Source: Deltaproteobacteria bacterium | Lineage (GTDB): Bacteria; Desulfobacterota; Binatia; UBA9968 | Assembly (NCBI GenBank): GCA_016874755.1 | Contig: VGTH01000009.1 | Coordinates: forward strand, 4,933 to 68,932 | Reading direction: 5' to 3' | Length of the DNA stretch: 64,000 nucleotides | Shown here: positions 10,002 through 57,677 of the stretch, piece by piece | Numbering within the stretch: the stretch's first letter is position 1 | Layout of the letters: each line of letters begins with the position of its first letter | Notes under the pieces: generated by a model | The model's database searches: none | Seen by the model: only the letters and a program-made list of their open reading frames with translations | Told to the model about the DNA's origin: nothing | Program-made: the position numbers and the translations under genes

Positions 10002-10126
10002 GCGGCCCCTAAGAGACCGGCGCGCGCAGAACTTGCGGAGTCCTTCGATAAGCTCAGGACGAACGGAACTGAAATTCTCCGAAGTCGGGAAGACATGCAA
10101 ATCCGCTCGGGAGCCTTGCGATCAGT

Positions 10127-24277: not shown

Positions 24278-24402
24278 GGGATTCCAACTATTGTCTTTTA
24301 CGCTGACAAACTCCTCGGAGCCCTTCGACTCGGCTCAGGGCGAACGGATCAGAGGTTAAGAGCGTTGAAAAATCCGTTCATGCTGAACTCGTCGAAGCAT
24401 TC

Positions 24403-25578
24403 TCACGAGTCTTTAGCAGCGTGCTGCCTATTGCCTTCTTGTAAGAGCACCAAATAATCGCGATGAATAATCTCGTCGTAGCCTTTATAGCCTAGCACTT
24501 CGTCAATTTTGCTTGTATGCAATCCCTTGATCTGATTCAACTCCGTCGAGCTGTAGTTGACCAGACCGCGCGCAAATTCTTGTCCCTGCAAGTCTAAACA
24601 ACGCACGCAATCGCCGACGCCAAAGGCGCCGCGCACTTCCTTCAGTCCAGACGGCAATAAGCTCTTGCCCTTCTGCGTCACGGCCTCGTGCGCCCCTTGA
24701 TCGACGACCAAATCGCCGGCCGGTTTCGGGTTATAGGCCATCCAGTGCTTGATACTGGCGAGCCGGTTGTCGTCCGGGATCACCAGCGTGCCGACTTCGT
24801 CATCGGAAAACACTTTGGCGAGCACGTTGGCTTGTAAGCCGCTGGTGATAATCGTCGGAATGCCCGCCGCCGCGGCTTTTTCCGCAGCGCCCAGCTTGGT
24901 CGCGATGCCGCCCGTGCCAAACTGGGTTTGGCTCGCCCCGCCGATGCGCCGCATTGCGTCTTTGATATCGTCGATCAATGGAATCAACTGGGCATCTTTG
25001 TGCGCCCGCGGGTCGCGATCATAGACTCCCTGCACGTCGCTGAGAATCACCAGCAGGTCCGCCTCCAGCAGCGTCGCCACCAGCGACGACAGATTATCGT
25101 TGTCGCCAAATTTCATCTCCTCGACCGCGACCGTGTCGTTCTCGTTTACGATGGGGATGATCGACGACTCCAACAGCATCTGAAACGTGTGCTTGGCGTT
25201 GATGTAGCGCTGCCGGTTGGCCAGATCGTCAGCAGTCAAAAGCACCTGTGCGACGCTCTTGTCGAATTTGGAAAAAGCCCGCTCGTAGAGCGCCATCAGC
25301 TTGATCTGTCCCACCGCTGCCAACGCCTGTTTTTCAGGAATCGTCTTTGGCCGCTCTTTGCGGCCGAGCCGCGTCATGCCCGCCGCCACGGCGCCTGAGC
25401 TCACGACCACCAGCGATTTCTTGTCGTCGTGCAGCGATGAGAGATCTCGCACCAAAGATTTGAGCCGCGCCTCTTCAATGCCATCGCTGGACGAAAGAAT
25501 CTGGCTGCCGATCTTGACAACTACGCGGCGCGCGCGGCGCAGGATTTTTTGCTTATGCTCGCGCTGCGTCATATTCAT
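24403..25578 (-). CDS. proB: Glutamate 5-kinase with C-terminal PUA domain
   Basis: 391 aa; amino-acid-kinase fold (RVVVKIGSQILS...) and PUA tail. Confidence 0.9.
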   Translation of the reverse strand: MNMTQREHKQKILRRARRVVVKIGSQILSSSDGIEEARLKSLVRDLSSLHDDKKSLVVVSSGAVAAGMTRLGRKERPKTIPEKQALAAVGQIKLMALYERAFSKFDKSVAQVLLTADDLANRQRYINAKHTFQMLLESSIIPIVNENDTVAVEEMKFGDNDNLSSLVATLLEADLLVILSDVQGVYDRDPRAHKDAQLIPLIDDIKDAMRRIGGASQTQFGTGGIATKLGAAEKAAAAGIPTIITSGLQANVLAKVFSDDEVGTLVIPDDNRLASIKHWMAYNPKPAGDLVVDQGAHEAVTQKGKSLLPSGLKEVRGAFGVGDCVRCLDLQGQEFARGLVNYSSTELNQIKGLHTSKIDEVLGYKGYDEIIHRDYLVLLQEGNRQHAAKDS

Positions 25579-26605: not shown

Positions 26606-26782
26606 CCGCTGGACGCTGGCTTCTTAAAGCACAATACCATGAAATCGCGGCATTCGCCCGCGCTCGGAAGGCGGCCAGCCGGTCGCCCCTACGAAAAACA
26701 TCCGACGCACCCCATTTATCGTTGAAGCCGCAGCCAAAAAAAAAGCCCCTTGCGGGGCTTTTCAGATCGTATCACGCCCAAC

Positions 26783-29114: not shown

Positions 29115-29238
29115 AAATTGTTCCTCCGCGACAAAGAATTCAGTCAGCGCTATCACCGCGGCGGAAGCCTGTCAACGCAAAGATCGCGGCGCGCGCCGAC
29201 CGAGCCGAAACAATGCTTGAACTTTCCTCTGCACCGGG

Positions 29239-29353
29239 CGATTGAGGTGAAACTCTGGAGGAGCGATGGTGCGACCGAACGGTCGCGTCTTGCATAAGGC
29301 GCGTTAAAGCGCAGGCCTCTTATTTTCACTCCGGAAGAGTTTCACCTCGATCG
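29239..29353. repeat. Short member of the GTGAAACTCTGGAGGAGCG hairpin-repeat family (shares arms with the 258-bp repeats at 40.3 and 50.7 kb)
   Basis: Arms CGATTGAGGTGAAACTCTGGAGGAGCG (29239-29265) and CACTCCGGAAGAGTTTCACCTCGATCG (29327-29353) with inner GCGACCGaacGGTCGC palindrome. Confidence 0.55.
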
Positions 29354-29578
29354 ACAGCGCGTGGTTTCCACAACGCATGAATCAATCCGGTGTGAGGTAT
29401 CTTAAAAATGCTACTTCCGGCGAGGTCGGATTGTGCTAATCTAACGGTAGTCGCGGAAGCAACGCGGTTCGCACGTAAACAGAGGCTGCGGTCGGACACT
29501 GACAGTCAGAGGCATCGCATCTTGAAAAGCCCAGAAGTCAAGACGATCATCGGAAATCTATCCAGCAAAAAGATCACC

Positions 29579-34022: not shown

Positions 34023-34166
34023 GATCCATGTGTGAGGCATCTACATTTAAACGAGGCTTCAGCACGGAATCGAAGAATGCTTCGACAACTTGATGACCGG
34101 ATAACTTACCCAACGCTTTTCTCTTTCCGTTCGTCCTGAGCTTGTCGAAGGACTCCGAGGGATTTC

Positions 34167-40309: not shown

Positions 40310-40344
40310 TGGATTCAGATACATCACCACGGAGCACCTAGCCC

Positions 40345-40603
40345 GAATTATTCATGCGACCGGGAAAACCCGTGACACTGTGTCGATCGAAGTGGAACTC
40401 TGGAGGAGCGCAGGCATCAGCGCAAATCGTTCGGTTTGATTCGCCGATGCTGGGCATTTCTTCGACCTTTCCACTGCGATTCGCAGAGCAGGGCGACCGC
40501 CGGTCGCCCCTACAAGGCGGCGTCGAAGCGGATATCTGTTGCCTTCGCTCCGGAAGAGTTTCACTTCGATCGCGCCGCAGCGATGAATAATCCGGGCTAG
40601 GGC
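40345..40603. repeat. 258-bp structured intergenic repeat, copy A
   Basis: ~90% identical to 50682-50937; 27-nt inverted arms 40384-40410 / 40546-40572 and inner REP-like palindrome 40491-40510. Confidence 0.7.
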
Positions 40604-40774
40604 GGCACAGCCGCAACCGACCGGAACAATCTCTCGCAAAGACGCAAAGGTTCGGAGGGGAAATATTCACCACGAAGGGCACGAAGATCACGAAGGTAAA
40701 GGAAACATCAAAAACATCTGTAACATGCGCGCCCCCAGCAAGCTGTTGCCTGTTGCCTACCGACTGTTGCTTCT

Positions 40775-42202: not shown

Positions 42203-42330
42203 TAAGACAGTCCCCCGAACAATTATGATTCCCCCCTTTGTAAAAGGGGGGGCAAGGGGGGATTTTCTTGCGCGCACAAACTACAAATCCCCCTCTACCC
42301 CCCCTTTTTCAAAGGGGGAAGTCAGATGCA

Positions 42331-49537: not shown

Positions 49538-50677
49538 ATGATTTCGATCATTCGGGTATTTGGGAATTTTCTCTGCGCGCTCGCAGTGCCGCTGTTGTTT
49601 GCTCCTGCGCTCGTATTCGGCGCCGAGTCACGTCCCGGTTGGCAAGCCGATTGGGACAAGACGGTGAAAGCCGCCGAAGAAGAAGGCGGCCTAAACATCT
49701 ATATGACCTCCGCCTTTGAGTCAGTCTTTCGTGAAGCTTTCCAAAAAAAATTCCCCAAGATCAAAGTCTCGACGGTCGTTGGCCGCGGCTTTCAGCTAGG
49801 GCAGCGTGTCATGAACGAACGGCGCGGCGACAAATACATTCCCGATCTCTGCATCACAGGCAACATCACGCCGCTGACGGTTTTCCACAAGGCAAAAATC
49901 CTGGAGCCGATCAAACCTTTGTTGGTTTGGCCCGAAGTTGTGAACGAATCGGTCTGGTACGACCGCAAGCACAACTACAACGACCCGGAGGGGCGCTACA
50001 TTTTTGTCTTCGAGGGCACGCCGCGCGCCGGCGACATCACTTTCAATACCAAAATGGTCAATGCCAACGAGATTCGCTCCTATTGGAATCTTCTCGACCC
50101 CAAGTGGAAAGGAAAGATCGTCACCATCGACCCGCTAGTTGCCGGGCCGATCAACACGCCGCAAATCTATTTTTATAAACACCCCGACCTCGGCCCGGAG
50201 TTTCTCCGCCGGCTCTACGCTGAAACCGACATGACCGTGGTCCGCTCCGACGACCAGTTGATCGACTGGCTCAGCACGGGTAGATACGCACTCGGGTTTG
50301 GCGCGCGCGACGTCGACAAGGCGATTTCCCAGGGGCTGCCGGTGAATCAGTTCGTTTCCAACCACATGAAAGAAGGCGCGTCGCTCGCCACCTACAACGG
50401 CACCTTGAGTTTCTTCAATCGCGCGCCTCACCCAAATGCCGCGAAGGTTGCGGTGAACTGGCTGTTATCCAAAGAAGGCCAGAGCATCTGGCTCGATCAC
50501 AACGCCCGAACTTTCGGCCAATATGACTCCCTGCGCGAAGACATTGCCAAGGACAAAGTCCTGGATTCGGCGAAGCGCGTCAAAGGCGGACGCTATCTGT
50601 GGATTAAGACCGAATGGATCGAAGAGTTGGACACGATACGCGAGTTAATCAAAAAGGCACTGCCGGCGAAGTCTTAG
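49538..50677 (+). CDS. Periplasmic solute-binding protein (extracellular solute-binding family 1, Fe(3+)-type)
   Basis: ~379 aa from MISIIRVF, signal peptide. Confidence 0.6.
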   Translation: MISIIRVFGNFLCALAVPLLFAPALVFGAESRPGWQADWDKTVKAAEEEGGLNIYMTSAFESVFREAFQKKFPKIKVSTVVGRGFQLGQRVMNERRGDKYIPDLCITGNITPLTVFHKAKILEPIKPLLVWPEVVNESVWYDRKHNYNDPEGRYIFVFEGTPRAGDITFNTKMVNANEIRSYWNLLDPKWKGKIVTIDPLVAGPINTPQIYFYKHPDLGPEFLRRLYAETDMTVVRSDDQLIDWLSTGRYALGFGARDVDKAISQGLPVNQFVSNHMKEGASLATYNGTLSFFNRAPHPNAAKVAVNWLLSKEGQSIWLDHNARTFGQYDSLREDIAKDKVLDSAKRVKGGRYLWIKTEWIEELDTIRELIKKALPAKS

Positions 50678-50681
50678 GCTG

Positions 50682-50937
50682 AACTGTTCATGCGACGGGG
50701 AAAACCCATGGCACTCTGTCGATCGAAGTGGACCTCTGGAGGAGCGAAGGCATCAGCGCGAATCGTTCGGTTTGATTCGCCGAGGCTTGGTATATCTTCG
50801 ACCTTTCCAACGCCATTCGCAGAGCCGGGCGACCGCCGGTCGCCCCTACAGGACGGCGTCGAAGCGGATATCTGTTGCCTTCGCTCCGGAAGAGTTTCAC
50901 TTCGATCGCGTCGCAGCGATGAGTAATCAGGGTTAGG
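50682..50937. repeat. 258-bp structured intergenic repeat, copy B
   Basis: ~90% identical to 40345-40603; same hairpin arms and REP-like palindrome 50827-50846. Confidence 0.7.
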
Positions 50938-51086
50938 CTGCTAAAAACTTGCGACTGACTCGCGGCGAACGGATCGGAGATTGAAATCGTTGAAAACAAT
51001 CCATTCATCTGGCTTGTCGAAGCATTCTTATGAGTTTTGCATCGGCCTGCTGGACACGCGATATTTAGACTAGGCGAAGGAATAAT

Positions 51087-52244: not shown

Positions 52245-52335
52245 ATGGGGTGATGGAGTATCGGAGTGATGGAGTGTTGGAGTGTTGGGTTTTCGGAACC
52301 CATTACTCCACGACTCCAACACTCCATCACTCCGG
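52245..52335 (+). repeat. Long imperfect hairpin built from GGAGTGWT tandem units, immediately 3' of the MetE-like gene
   Basis: GGAGTATCGGAGTGATGGAGTGTTGGAGTGTTGGGTT ttcgg AACCCATTACTCCACGACTCCAACACTCCATCACTCC. Confidence 0.5.
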
Positions 52336-53151: not shown

Positions 53152-54756
53152 ATGCGTGCAGTAGCGGAGGTAAAGTGTATTCGCTTTTCTATTTCTGCAG
53201 CCTTGGTTTACGTTGCTGACAACAATGAAGCCGCAACGGAGTCAACGATTGCGAAACAAGCTGTTTCACTATTTGTGAGGCAAGGTTTTCGCCCAAGCAT
53301 CAGTTGGCGCAGCTCGCGGGCGACCGGCTGTTTGAATGCGACTTTCTATGCGTCGGAAAGCGAGCAACTAGACAGGGTTCTAGGTTTGAGCAACGGGCTC
53401 GATCCCGAGTTCGTCGCCAAGACCGCGGTCTATTGCCGCGAGCAAAGCCTCATGAAGGACATGCCGGCGCTGTTGTGCGCGTCGTTGTCGACTCGCGACA
53501 CTGAGTTGATGCAGGCAACCTTCGTTCGTGTCATCGACAACGGCAAGATGCTGCGCAACCTCGTGCAGATCCTGCGCTCTGGCGCCGTCGGTCGGAAGTC
53601 TTTGGGCACGGCGCCTAAGCGTCTGGTGCAAAGCTGGTTCGACCGTCAAGATGAGAGCGACTTGTTCCGCGCCGCCATCGGGCAGGATCCGTCCATCGAA
53701 GATGTGATCAAGATGGTGCATCCGAAGCCGAAGACTGAGGAGCAGGAAGCTCTGTACGGCTACCTGTTGGGGCGTTCGCACGATGCTGAGTCGCTGCCGG
53801 CTGTAGTTCGTGCGTGCGAGGCTTTCAAGGCGGGTGATACCACCGAGGTTCCCGACGTGCCGTTTATGAAGTTGACCGCGGTGGACTTGAGCGATTTGGC
53901 TTGGAAGAAAATCGCTGAGCGCGCTTCATGGCAGACCACCCGCATGAACTTGAACACCTTTGCTCGCCACGGCGTATTTGCCGATGCGGCTTTGGTGGAA
54001 AGGATCGCGGCGCGCTTGCGCGATCCGAAAGCGATCCGCAAGGCGCGGGCATTTCCGTATCAGTTGATGGTGGCCTACACCACGGCCGATGCAGCAATTC
54101 CTGGAGCGATCCCCGAGGCGTTGCAGGACGCCATGGAAGTGGCGATCGCAAACGTGCCCTGCTTCGCCGGCAAGGTCTACGTCTGCCCGGATGTGTCGGG
54201 TTTGATGTCGAGCGCGATCACCGGCTACCGCAAGGGTGCAACCAGCGCCGTGCGGGCGATCGATGTCGCGGCGCTGGTCGCCGCCGCGGTGGTGCGCAAG
54301 AATCCGTCGGCGGCGGTCTTGCCCTTTGAGCAGGACGTCGTGCCGTTGGCGCTCAACCCGCGCGATAGCGTGATAACCAATGCGGCCAAGCTCGCTGCCA
54401 TCGGCGGCGGTGGGACCAACTGCAGCGCGCCGTTGGCGCAGTTGAACGAGCGCAAAGCCAAAGGTGATCTGGTGATCTTCGTCTCCGATAACGAGGCGTG
54501 GATCGACGCAGGCCATGGCCGCGGCACAGCAACGATGGCCGAGTGGCAGCGCTTCAAGGCGCGCAACCCGGCGGCAAAGTTGGTCTGCATCGACTTGCAG
54601 CCGTACGCCACGACCCAAGCGCAGGAGCGCGCAGATATTTTGAATATCGGCGGCGGCTTCTCGGATGCGGTATTCGACGTGATCGCGCGCTTTGCGCAAG
54701 GTTCACTGAACGCCGATCATTGGGTCGGTGAGATCGAAGCCGTGAGTTTGAATTAA
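53152..54756 (+). CDS. rsr: Ro60-related protein Rsr (TROVE domain + C-terminal vWA/MIDAS)
   Basis: 534 aa; TROVE core (...LVQSWFDRQDESDLFRAAIGQDPSIEDVIKMVHPKP...), vWA with DVSGLMSS MIDAS motif; Deinococcus-Rsr-like length. Confidence 0.85.
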   Translation: MRAVAEVKCIRFSISAALVYVADNNEAATESTIAKQAVSLFVRQGFRPSISWRSSRATGCLNATFYASESEQLDRVLGLSNGLDPEFVAKTAVYCREQSLMKDMPALLCASLSTRDTELMQATFVRVIDNGKMLRNLVQILRSGAVGRKSLGTAPKRLVQSWFDRQDESDLFRAAIGQDPSIEDVIKMVHPKPKTEEQEALYGYLLGRSHDAESLPAVVRACEAFKAGDTTEVPDVPFMKLTAVDLSDLAWKKIAERASWQTTRMNLNTFARHGVFADAALVERIAARLRDPKAIRKARAFPYQLMVAYTTADAAIPGAIPEALQDAMEVAIANVPCFAGKVYVCPDVSGLMSSAITGYRKGATSAVRAIDVAALVAAAVVRKNPSAAVLPFEQDVVPLALNPRDSVITNAAKLAAIGGGGTNCSAPLAQLNERKAKGDLVIFVSDNEAWIDAGHGRGTATMAEWQRFKARNPAAKLVCIDLQPYATTQAQERADILNIGGGFSDAVFDVIARFAQGSLNADHWVGEIEAVSLN

Positions 54757-54767
54757 CTTTAACCGGG

Positions 54768-54827
54768 GCTGAATGCAGTCGAAACTACATTTGCGACATG
54801 TTCTGTCTCGACGACAAACTTGTCAGC
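54768..54827 (+). ncRNA. Short Y-RNA-like element (stem only, no tRNA-like insert), 12 nt after rsr stop
   Basis: GCUGA-AUGCA-GUCGA...UCGAC-GACAAACUUG-UCAGC: same two-helix / asymmetric-loop architecture as the two downstream elements with compensatory helix changes. Confidence 0.4.
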
Positions 54828-54840
54828 TCCGATAAACCCA

Positions 54841-54875
54841 GGGCGACCCACCGGTCGCCCCCACGAAAATCGTGG
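54841..54875. repeat. REP-like palindrome GGGCGACCcaccGGTCGCCC plus adjacent CCACGAaaaTCGTGG hairpin
   Basis: Same palindrome family as 26670-26689, 40491-40510, 50827-50846 and (reverse orientation, compensatory G>A/C>T) 54953-54973. Confidence 0.6.
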
Positions 54876-54988
54876 CGCCGAATGCTGTTGGGATTACATC
54901 ACAACCCTAGTACGGATGTCTCAACAAAAACTTGTCGGCCCAGAAACTTGTAGGGGCAACCGGCGGGTTGCCCTCAGGGATGCACGTA

Positions 54989-55096
54989 GCGAATGCCGAA
55001 GATAACTACATGGGTCGCGGGTTCGACTCCCCCTGGCTCCGTCAAACGGGCCATAGCTCAGCGGGAGAGCAATGTTTCCTTCAACAATTTGTCGCC
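54989..55096 (+). ncRNA. yrlA: YrlA-like Y RNA with circularly permuted tRNA-mimic domain
   Basis: T-arm GCGGG-UUCGACU-CCCCC (55017-55033), loop-closed acceptor-like stem UGGCUCC/GGGCCA, UA, D-arm GCUC-AGCGGGA-GAGC (55056-55070), 5-nt variable loop GGGUC, flanking ACAU/AUGU helix and GCGA..GAAG / CUUC..UCGC outer stem; lies between rsr and rtcB. Confidence 0.65.
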
Positions 55097-55150
55097 ACTA
55101 AATGCGGTTAGAAAGAATGGTGCGAAAAGCGATAGAATATTGAAACTAGC

Positions 55151-55270
55151 GGCGAATGCCGAAGCAACTGCATGGCCTCGCGGGTCTTCGGGTGCAAGTC
55201 CTGAAGCGCAGTCAACTGCGCTAGCTCAGGACAGAGCAACGAGAAAACGCTTCTTCAAGAACTTGTCGCC
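55151..55270 (+). ncRNA. Second, more degenerate Y-RNA-like element with tRNA-like D-arm and extended T-arm analogue
   Basis: Same termini as element 1 (GGCGAAUGCCGAAG ... CUUCAAGAACUUGUCGCC), D-arm GCUC-AGGACA-GAGC preceded by UA and loop-closed helix CGCAG-ucaa-CUGCG, 7-bp stem CUUCGGG-UGCAAGU-CCUGAAG. Confidence 0.5.
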
Positions 55271-55285
55271 GCCCGTGGGGGAAAT

Positions 55286-56514
55286 ATGTCAGAGAGCAAC
55301 TACAACCTGATTCAGCCAGAGAATGGCGTGCCCATCAAGGCCTGGACCAAGGGCGTCGCCATTGAAGGTTCAGCGGAGAAGCAGCTGCGCAACGTCGCGA
55401 CCATGCCGTTCGTCTACAAATGGGTGGCGGCGATGCCGGACGTGCATTGGGGCATCGGCGCTACTGTAGGGAGTGTGATCCCCACCAAAGGCGCGATCAT
55501 CCCAGCCGCCGTCGGCGTCGATATCGGCTGCGGCATGATGGCGGTGCGAACAACGTTGAACGCCAGCCAACTGCCAGACAACCTGCGCAGCGTGCGCTCG
55601 GCAATTGAAAAGGCGTGCCGCACGGACGCACCAACAACGGGCGCAAGGGCGACCGCGGCGCGTGGGGCGAAATCCCCAAGCGCCAGATCGGCGTGTGGCG
55701 CCAGCTCGAGATGGGCTACAAAGCGATCACGGAAAAGTATCCAAACTTAGATCGCGGCAATGATGTGAATCACTTGGGCACCCTCGGCACCGGCAACCAC
55801 TTCATCGAAGTGTGCCTGGACGAAAGTGACCGGGTTTGGTTCATGCTCCATAGCGGGTCACGCGGCGTCGGCAATCGCATCGGGACCTTTTTCATCGATC
55901 TGGCGCGCAACGATATGCGCAAGCATATCGCGAATCTGCCGGATCGCGACCTCGCTTACTTCGAAGAAGGCAGCGAGCACTTCGAAGACTATGTGGATGC
56001 CGTGCACTGGGCGCAGGAGTTTGCCATGTACAACCGTAAACTGATGATGGAGCAGCTGGTCGAAGCGGTGGAAAATTGCCGCGAGCTGCCGGAGTTTTCA
56101 CTGACTGAAACGGCGGTGAATTGCCATCATAACTACGTCGCCCGCGAAGAGCACTACGGCCATGCCGTGTTCGTCACCCGCAAAGGCGCGGTGCGCGCCG
56201 GCAAGGGCGACATGGGGATTATCCCCGGCAGCATGGGGGCGCGCTCGTACATCGTGCGCGGCCTCGGCAATCTCGAGAGCTTCGAAAGCTGCAGCCACGG
56301 CGCCGGCCGCGCCATGTCGCGCAACGAAGCCAAGCGCCGTTTTACGATTGACGATCACATCAAAGCCACTGCTGGCGTCGAATGCCGAAAAGACGCCAAT
56401 GTTATCGACGAAACCCCAATGGCGTACAAGAACATCGACGATGTCATGAACGCGCAGAAGGATTTAGTCGAGATTGCGCATACGCTGCGGCAGGTGGTGT
56501 GTGTGAAAGGATAG
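55286..56514 (+). pseudogene. rtcB: RNA-splicing ligase RtcB, reading frame broken by 1-nt deletion near 55612 (or sequencing error)
   Basis: ORFs 55286-55750 and 55615-56514 together give a full-length RtcB (..AIEKA|VPHGRTNNGRKGDRGAWGE.., HLGTLGTGNHFIEVCLDE.., SCSHGAGR..); expected GCG GTG CCG is GCG TGC CGC. Confidence 0.8.
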
Positions 56515-56606
56515 GCTTGAGGCGCGAGTTGAAAGGATGAAAGATGAAAGCGGAAGTATGAAAGAAGAGTTCGGACAATTCCACCTTCATAATTCCGCTT
56601 TCATAA

Positions 56607-57379
<773 letters not shown>

Positions 57380-57677
57380 GCTAGGAGAACCCATGCCGAG
57401 AATCGCGTTAGATCTAAACAACCTCGATGATCTGAAAAAAGTAAGCCCATTGGCGTCTCGGCCCCGGACTCGTGCCCGGTCAGCCCAACGAAGGGTTGGT
57501 CGCGCAGCTTTTGAATACGCCAGCACGTCTGCCTGAGTACGACGATTCGAGGGTGAATAAGTGCAAGGGGAAAGGCTACCGGACAGAGCCAGGACAAAAG
57601 AACTAACCCTCGCTGGGTGATCGATTATGCTGATCCGACGGATCCGACCGATCGGTCTGAAGGTTCAACCCGACACG

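Follow-up and report, generated by a model that had tools for sequence, protein, structure and literature searches.

A short intergenic hairpin repeat in an uncultured freshwater bacterium, probably a new family of non-coding MITEs

Introduction

What kind of element is a strongly folding repeat that recurs between unrelated genes of an uncultured bacterium: a small RNA gene with paralogues, or a piece of mobile DNA? The question is raised by a 64,000-nucleotide stretch (hereafter the window) of a metagenome-assembled genome labelled Deltaproteobacteria bacterium (assembly GCA_016874755.1, contig VGTH01000009.1). [quoted passage not shown]

MITEs of prokaryotes are recognized by a set of shared features: they are shorter than 500 bp and intergenic, bear terminal inverted repeats (TIRs), are flanked by direct repeats in young copies, occur in size variants, give rise to stem-loop transcripts and cluster with other repeats (PMC10969869). 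The typical representative is A+T-rich, and its TIRs measure 4-30 bp (PMC10969869). Below we delimit the repeat, follow its copies and their borders, and weigh the candidate classes against one another.

Results and discussion

Extent and parts of the element

The two long copies, here called A and B, proved to be 90% identical over 263 nt by repeat search and blastn, in agreement with the ~90% first noted, and constitute the longest direct repeat of the window (40339-40601 and 50675-50937). That the unit is a repeat thus stands, whereas its extent is slightly larger than first given: copies A and B each measure 265 nt and fold into one hairpin with CCTAGCCCGAATTATTCAT / ATGAATAATCCGGGCTAGG as its outer stem (Table 1). 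The whole unit reads as a single long but imperfect palindrome bounded by terminal inverted repeats, CCCGRATTATTCAT, the two ends of which (CCCGAATTATTCAT and ATGAATAATCCGGG) pair as helix 1 over 20 pairs. Its self-complementary halves are ~110 nt long and its G+C content is 57%. With ~255-265 bp, the element is a discrete unit below ~500 bp and is devoid of a transposase gene.

Several details of the first description were borne out. The 27-nt arms form an 18-bp and a 6-bp helix around a symmetric GGA/GGA loop; we find that they reach further, to 37 nt with 84% complementarity, and that the 6-bp helix resumes past a one-base bulge (helices 4 and 5). The palindrome GGGCGACCGCCGGTCGCCC is perfect and lies at 40491-40509 and 50827-50845. 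The shorter relative at 29239-29353 is indeed related to the long copies, but is in fact the core of a degenerate 198-nt copy, here called C, which can be aligned to the long form over the termini, the arms and the REP-like hairpin. Copy C has lost ~75 nt of the centre, shows CGAG/TGAG in place of the flanking CTAG, and lies between divergent glyoxalase and Amdase-like genes. The double change from GAAGTG/CACTTC to GAGGTG/CACCTC in this third copy was likewise confirmed.

Table 1. Coordinates of the element copies and their parts in the window.
Feature	Position	Strand	Remarks
Copy A, full element, 265 nt	40337..40601	+	Homology to 5 other full copies from C-CTAG to CTAG-G, flanks unrelated; neighbours convergent (TPP enzyme gene ends 40309, HpaB-like gene ends 40775)
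Copy A, left CTAG	40338..40341	.	Candidate target-site duplication (4 bp, or TA inside) or outermost inverted-repeat bases
Copy A, right CTAG	40597..40600	.	
Left terminal inverted repeat CCCGAATTATTCATGCG	40342..40358	+	Helix 1, 20 pairs with 40581-40601
Right terminal inverted repeat CGATGAATAATCCGGG	40581..40596	+	Helix 1 partner
5' inner arm CGATCGAAGTGGAACTCTGGAGGAGCGCAGGCATCAG	40384..40420	+	GGA loop 40402-40404; segment with highest conservation
3' inner arm CTGTTGCCTTCGCTCCGGAAGAGTTTCACTTCGATCG	40536..40572	+	GGA loop 40552-40554; no change in 6/6 full copies
Embedded REP-like unit, GGGCGACCGCCGGTCGCCC + CTAC	40491..40513	+	On the minus strand, GTAG then palindrome
Copy B, older	50673..50937	+	90% identical to A; between SBP gene and MetE-like gene; flanked by TTAG 50674-50677 (contains SBP stop codon) and a second TTAG 50933-50936
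Copy C, degenerate, 198 nt	29200..29397	+	Core arms 29239-29265 / 29327-29353

Copies elsewhere and host

Metagenome contigs were scanned with the 17-mer CTCCGGAAGAGTTTCAC of the most conserved arm, and five true copies emerged among the 95 stretches listed. These at least five further copies (L074, L114, L136, L155 and L158) all reside on other contigs of sample Ga0194131. Identity to A is 94.7-98.1% in the four complete ones, L114, L136, L155 and L158; L074 is truncated by the end of its contig, and the 128 nt that are known, at its 3' side, match A exactly. Overall, identity to A ranges from 90 to 98% among the long copies. Since the family comprises at least eight loci (A, B, C and at least five others), it exceeds the count of two that the first-pass annotation had held to speak against a family. 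The contigs with the extra copies appear to belong to the same genome, as judged from the shared sample, a similar G+C content (56-59%) and other repeat families that they have in common.

Proteins encoded in the window were matched exactly in Lake Tanganyika metagenomes (JGI 3300020193, 3300020197, 3300020198 and 3300020200; Logan SRR7990526) and on the NCBI metagenome-assembled genome 'Deltaproteobacteria bacterium'. The host is an uncultured freshwater bacterium whose nearest named relatives are Candidatus Binatia. When 185,579 species-representative genomes (one per GTDB species) were searched with the same 17-mer, 61 matches were obtained, compared with ~70 by a rough chance estimate, and none of the 61 had a partner arm. 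Because these matches are at chance level, the source genome or the element family is not among the species representatives. Neither plasmids nor viral contigs contained a match to the element, and no further copy was seen in the 7.4 kb past the right end of the window. Among the matches listed, the element has so far been found in one uncultured lineage only.

Borders and flanking tetranucleotides

The six complete copies were aligned together with the 40 nt adjoining each end, and the right end of L074 was added. Similarity sets in abruptly at C[C/T]TAG and stops at [C/T]TA[G/A], outside of which the flanks are unrelated; the combination of unrelated flanks and sharp borders rules out a segmental duplication and marks the repeat as a discrete insertable unit. 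The flanks read CTAG/CTAG in A, L136, L155 and L158, CTAG/CTAA in L114, and TTAG/TTAG, direct and not inverted, in B. Counted by side, the left tetranucleotide is TTAG in B and CTAG in the five others; on the right, B again has TTAG and L114 has CTAA, with CTAG in five copies. All 13 of the 13 flanking tetranucleotides fit YTAR, mostly as CTAG and symmetric about TA, and YTAR borders each of the six full copies left and right. CTAG is strongly rare in the window, with 55 occurrences compared with 239 expected from base composition.

The CTAG borders can be read as a target-site duplication or as part of the terminal inverted repeat, and because CTAG is its own reverse complement, a duplication is inseparable from the tip of an inverted repeat. 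The TTAG...TTAG of copy B is direct rather than inverted, which argues for a duplication. Symmetric duplications come in two sizes here, 4 bp (YTAR) or 2 bp (the TA within YTAR). The 4-bp model needs one later mutation, in L114, and the 2-bp model also needs one, in B; with one mutation per model, the borders offer no choice between the two. Both sizes have precedents: IS5 duplicates 5'-YTAR-3' on insertion (PMC5009759), and the target of IS630 is given as the TA of 5'-CTAG-3', with TA duplicated as in Tc1/mariner elements (Tenzen & Ohtsubo 1991, as cited in PMC2170065). An 8-bp duplication, considered on account of TTAGGCTG on both sides of B, was rejected as it is missing from the other copies.

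Genomic context and empty sites

All seven complete copies, that is, without the L074 fragment, are intergenic, and their orientation to the neighbouring genes is mixed. A and L158 have convergent neighbours; the neighbours of B and L155 are co-directional, and the element shares their orientation; L136 is upstream of a co-directional gene. The first-pass annotation had placed each long copy just 3' of a plus-strand gene, which did not hold as a rule: C sits between divergent genes, and L114 is antisense to both its neighbours, two minus-strand genes, taking up 265 of the 308 nt between them. The left TTAG of B supplies, with its TAG, the stop codon of the solute-binding-protein (SBP) gene.

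The SBP/MetE-like gene pair that brackets copy B is kept in two relatives, L166 and L165, whose SBP orthologues are ~82-87% identical to that of the window. There, the gap between the two genes measures 64-67 nt, compared with 409 nt in the window, where it is filled by the element and part of a second repeat. The element is absent from this gap and from the 25 kb around it in both L165 and L166. With a protein identity of ~82-87% in these relatives, the empty site holds at the level of gene order. The SBP protein cluster contains no relative above ~87% identity, and the nearest relatives are thus too distant for a nucleotide-precise empty site. Contigs recovered by the flanking proteins all carry the element or break inside it, and none represents an insertion-free strain. 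Short-read assemblies of locus A break off ~40 nt into the element from either side, as is usual for a multi-copy repeat that an assembler fails to resolve.

Tests for an RNA gene and for a coding function

The fold is stable, with a folding energy far below that of shuffled sequences: z is -6.5 for the plus strand and -7.3 for the minus strand. The two strands fold alike, at -129.9 and -130.2 kcal/mol. If the copies were paralogous small RNA genes, or Y-RNA-like ones, the long terminal stem and the branched centre would be the functional fold. Apart from the z-score of -6.5, such genes would be in keeping with the tolerance of G-U pairs on the plus strand and with a Ro60/Rsr gene 2.2 kb downstream of B. 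However, the Rfam scan suggested in the first-pass annotation gave no match at the gathering threshold for the whole window, and noise only at E <= 10 for copy A, and no promoter- or terminator-like site was found in or near copy A. That near-identical copies occur at unrelated loci with sharp YTAR borders, in one case antisense to the operon, and are absent in relatives likewise speaks against RNA paralogues.

Covariation was evaluated on the consensus structure of the six full copies. The score was 0.042 compared with a shuffle mean of 0.041, and 194 of 500 shuffles scored as high. Of the pairs that vary, most are merely disrupted, and substitutions abolish pairing as often as they preserve it. 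RNAalifold gave unfavourable covariation terms, +2.1 kcal/mol on one strand and +3.3 kcal/mol on the other, with double changes in 1 of 96 and 0 of 94 pairs, respectively. Among the stem transitions read on the plus strand, nine yield G-U and seven to eight yield A-C; as G-U is about as frequent as A-C, there is no strand preference. The double change in copy C had been taken as an argument that the helix itself is under selection, a conclusion which the six full copies, with covariation no better than in shuffles, do not sustain. The compensatory change between A and C is a single one among five changes in 54 arm positions, for which the rough chance probability is ~0.08, and transposon inverted repeats that have to fit one transposase would co-vary likewise. 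None of the tests applied favours an RNA gene, and the element is unlikely to be a conserved one. We consider paralogous small RNA genes very improbable indeed.

The Ro60 gene near copy B had also raised the possibility of a Y RNA. YrlA (Rfam RF02553) resembles the element in having a long terminal stem and a branched centre, and an rsr (Ro60) gene is near the element; unlike YrlA, however, the element has no match to this family in sequence or model. The YrlA matches of the locus lie elsewhere (54986-55101 and 55149-55275) and are unrelated in sequence to the repeat, and the Y-RNA assignment was dropped.

This locus is an observation in its own right. A Ro60/Rsr-like gene of 534 aa (53152-54756; vWA_Ro60/TROVE) is followed by two tandem YrlA matches, rtcB and rtcA, the whole covering 53152-57400 and starting ~2 kb downstream of B, unrelated to the repeat. 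The first YrlA match (54986-55101, plus strand) scores 56.8 bits with E = 2.9e-11 and the second (55149-55275, plus strand) 33 bits with E = 2e-4; both fall below the 69-bit gathering score and were missed by the default Rfam scan. In Salmonella, the gene order is rsr-yrlBA-rtcBA, and the rsr-YrlA-YrlA-rtcBA locus of this Binatia-like genome looks like it.

With regard to a coding function, two frames are open throughout in all copies. Compared with A and the consensus, copy B carries mostly amino-acid-changing substitutions, as judged by eye from the translations, and the translated minus-strand open frame had no homologue among 5.8 billion proteins. The amino-acid-changing substitutions and the want of a homologue show that the element is not coding, and a coding peptide was ruled out by this substitution pattern. 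Two further candidates were discarded. A terminator was ruled out as the element has no T-run, and an integron attC site does not agree with copies 10 kb apart among metabolic genes of mixed orientation, nor were RYYYAAC/GTTRRRY core sites found on reading the ends.

REP-like units

Each long copy contains a canonical-looking REP unit, which on the minus strand reads GTAG followed by GGGCGACCGGCGGTCGCCC; this unit also occurs free-standing or as an inverted pair at 26670, 54841 and 54950. Its 12-mer has five matches in the window, compared with 0.19 expected. In a version of the third class proposed at first, the element would be REP/BIME- or REPIN-like and be spread by a RAYT (REP-associated tyrosine transposase) acting on single-stranded hairpins, not by a DDE transposase. 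The substrates of HUH enzymes are imperfect hairpins with unpaired bases, which the element resembles, and its copies adjoin other repeats as in BIME clusters. We nevertheless regard such an origin as distinctly unlikely. The unit is single and central, with no symmetric inverted pair delimiting the element, and the 37-nt arms are non-palindromic and lack a conserved GTAG. True TIRs with YTAR on both sides are not known from RAYT/IS200-type elements. The likeness to REP, BIME and REPIN sequences lies in the intergenic palindromic repeats and in the GTAG-plus-palindrome units of this genome, one of which is inside each long copy, whereas the TIRs, the YTAR flanks and conserved arms that are not REP-like set the element apart.

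The free-standing units are located at 26670-26692 and, as an inverted pair, at 54841-54864 / 54950-54975, just 3' of the Ro60 gene. REP-like units are also present at L136 11498-11524 and at L155 5907-5933 and 9687-9711.

Nature and mobility of the element

Taken together, the at least eight loci, the 95-98% identity in five of them, the unrelated flanks, the YTAR borders, the TIRs, the intergenic position and the absence from relatives lead us to conclude that the element is probably a non-coding MITE, of a new family with YTAR/CTAG as its insertion target, like that of IS5-type or IS630-type transposases. Of the three classes first proposed, the MITE is thus the one upheld, by the number of loci, the YTAR borders and the TIRs; the sRNA family fails on Rfam, covariation and strand tests, and the REP/BIME-like element retains the slight chance given above. 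The element is thus of a common type, from a family not described before.

The element would be mobilized in trans, by a DDE transposase whose gene lies at another place in the genome. This enzyme would target YTAR/CTAG and duplicate either 4 bp, as IS5-type enzymes do, or the central TA, as IS630/Tc1-mariner-type enzymes do. The long hairpin would then arise incidentally, the halves being inverted copies of one another, and B and C may be old, decaying remnants. Read-through from neighbouring genes would yield a long hairpin in the RNA, with a possible influence on mRNA processing like that of Correia and ERIC elements. The family of the transposase, its continued presence in the genome and any effects on neighbouring transcripts are inferred. 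An autonomous element with matching ends was not found, there being no other TIR-like sequence in ~130 kb of this organism.

The closest parallels are Correia/CREE of Neisseria, ERIC of the Enterobacteriaceae and Chunjie of Geobacter. Like these, the element is shorter than 500 bp, has no transposase, and has inverted-repeat ends and, at its flanks, short TA-centred repeats that may be target-site duplications. The likeness extends to many near-identical intergenic copies, long and short variants with common ends, a stable stem-loop if transcribed, and clustering with other repeats. In contrast to them, it has an embedded REP-like unit and shares no sequence similarity with any of the three. 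Its 57% G+C and its ~110-nt self-complementary halves are a further difference, and they also stand against a typical MITE. As likely mobilizers, IS5 (4-bp YTAR) and IS630/Tc1-mariner elements (TA; IS630 at CTAG) agree with the YTAR flanks of the element. However, no transposase gene or full-length insertion sequence with CCCGRATTATTCAT ends was found.

The element matters mainly as housekeeping, that is, as a new MITE family and as part of an intergenic landscape rich in repeats, with REP-like units and a second palindromic family, in a freshwater lineage of which little is known. The breaks of short-read assemblies at its sites are also accounted for, and knowing the element guards against misreading it as an sRNA gene.

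Conservation of the inner arms

One feature does not follow from the MITE assignment. Variable columns number 2 of 74 in the inner arms compared with 39 of 189 elsewhere (Fisher p = 1e-4), regions which were delimited with the data already in view. In copy B, eight changes in 41 nt have cost the outer inverted repeats their complementarity, compared with two changes in 74 nt of the arms (p = 0.004). Copies that drift freely are expected to decay evenly, and the low variability of the arms is therefore unexplained if the element is simply a MITE. There are three possible causes: a subfamily structure, in which the differences stem from active master copies whose arms matter for transposition; a subterminal transposase site; or a constraint acting after insertion, through a host factor that uses the arm helix.

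The last of these would make the element a MITE with an exapted module. The arms with their GGA/GGA loop would be held by a host factor, be it an RNA-binding protein, an RNase or a DNA-binding protein, and the copies would serve as dispersed cis-acting sites of processing or regulation. This would fit the arms being the least variable part, both across all full copies and relative to the termini of B, and it would fit copy C, which keeps the arm sequence and the asymmetric GGA/TCC difference and shows one compensatory A-U to G-C change. It also has a parallel, as Correia and ERIC elements are cut by RNase III or RNase E and bind IHF (PMC10969869). We consider it unlikely all the same. There is neither covariation nor strand preference, the orientation relative to genes is mixed, and the test of regions was chosen post hoc. 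Moreover, the 3' terminus of C (19/21 positions) is kept as well as its arms (25/27 and 22/27), and one population variant alters the GGA loop itself. The variant, GGAGGAG to GGGGGAG, is found near position 2184 of L002, a version of copy B from ENA ERZ27247963, and is the sole difference from the copy B of the window across four assemblies. Should the low variability of the arms hold with more copies, the element would be a tidy case of a mobile element that carries or has acquired a host-used hairpin.

Other repeats of the window

A second palindromic intergenic family, of ~100-120 nt, has the form CGGAGTCCTTCGACAAGCTCAGGACGAACGGA ... CCGTTC..CTGAGCTCGTCGAAG, with the core CTTCGACAAGCTCAGGACGAACGGA and its inverse. 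It occurs at 24325-24420, 50950-51045 and L158 10389-10500, with half-copies at 10036-10068 and 34125-34157. Two of its copies abut the 265-nt element, at B and in L158, which shows that the repeats cluster.

Short repeats of the CACGAAGG type make up 45-nt stretches at 544-588 and 40660-40704, in inverted orientation and with 89% identity; one of these stretches lies 60 nt downstream of A, and a variant of it with CGCAAAG repeats is seen where another sample's assembly covers this site (L171). Directly after the MetE-like gene, at 52262-52334, there is a near-perfect 27-bp hairpin (CGGAGTGATGGAGTGTTGGAGTGTTGG and its complement), which gave spurious Rfam matches to microRNA precursors and may be a terminator or another repeat. 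Finally, an inverted repeat of 40 nt with many G-runs and C-runs (TGATTCCCCCCTTTGTAAAAGGGGGGGCAAGGGGGGATTT and its complement) is located at 42226-42324, at the start of the HpaB-like gene region.
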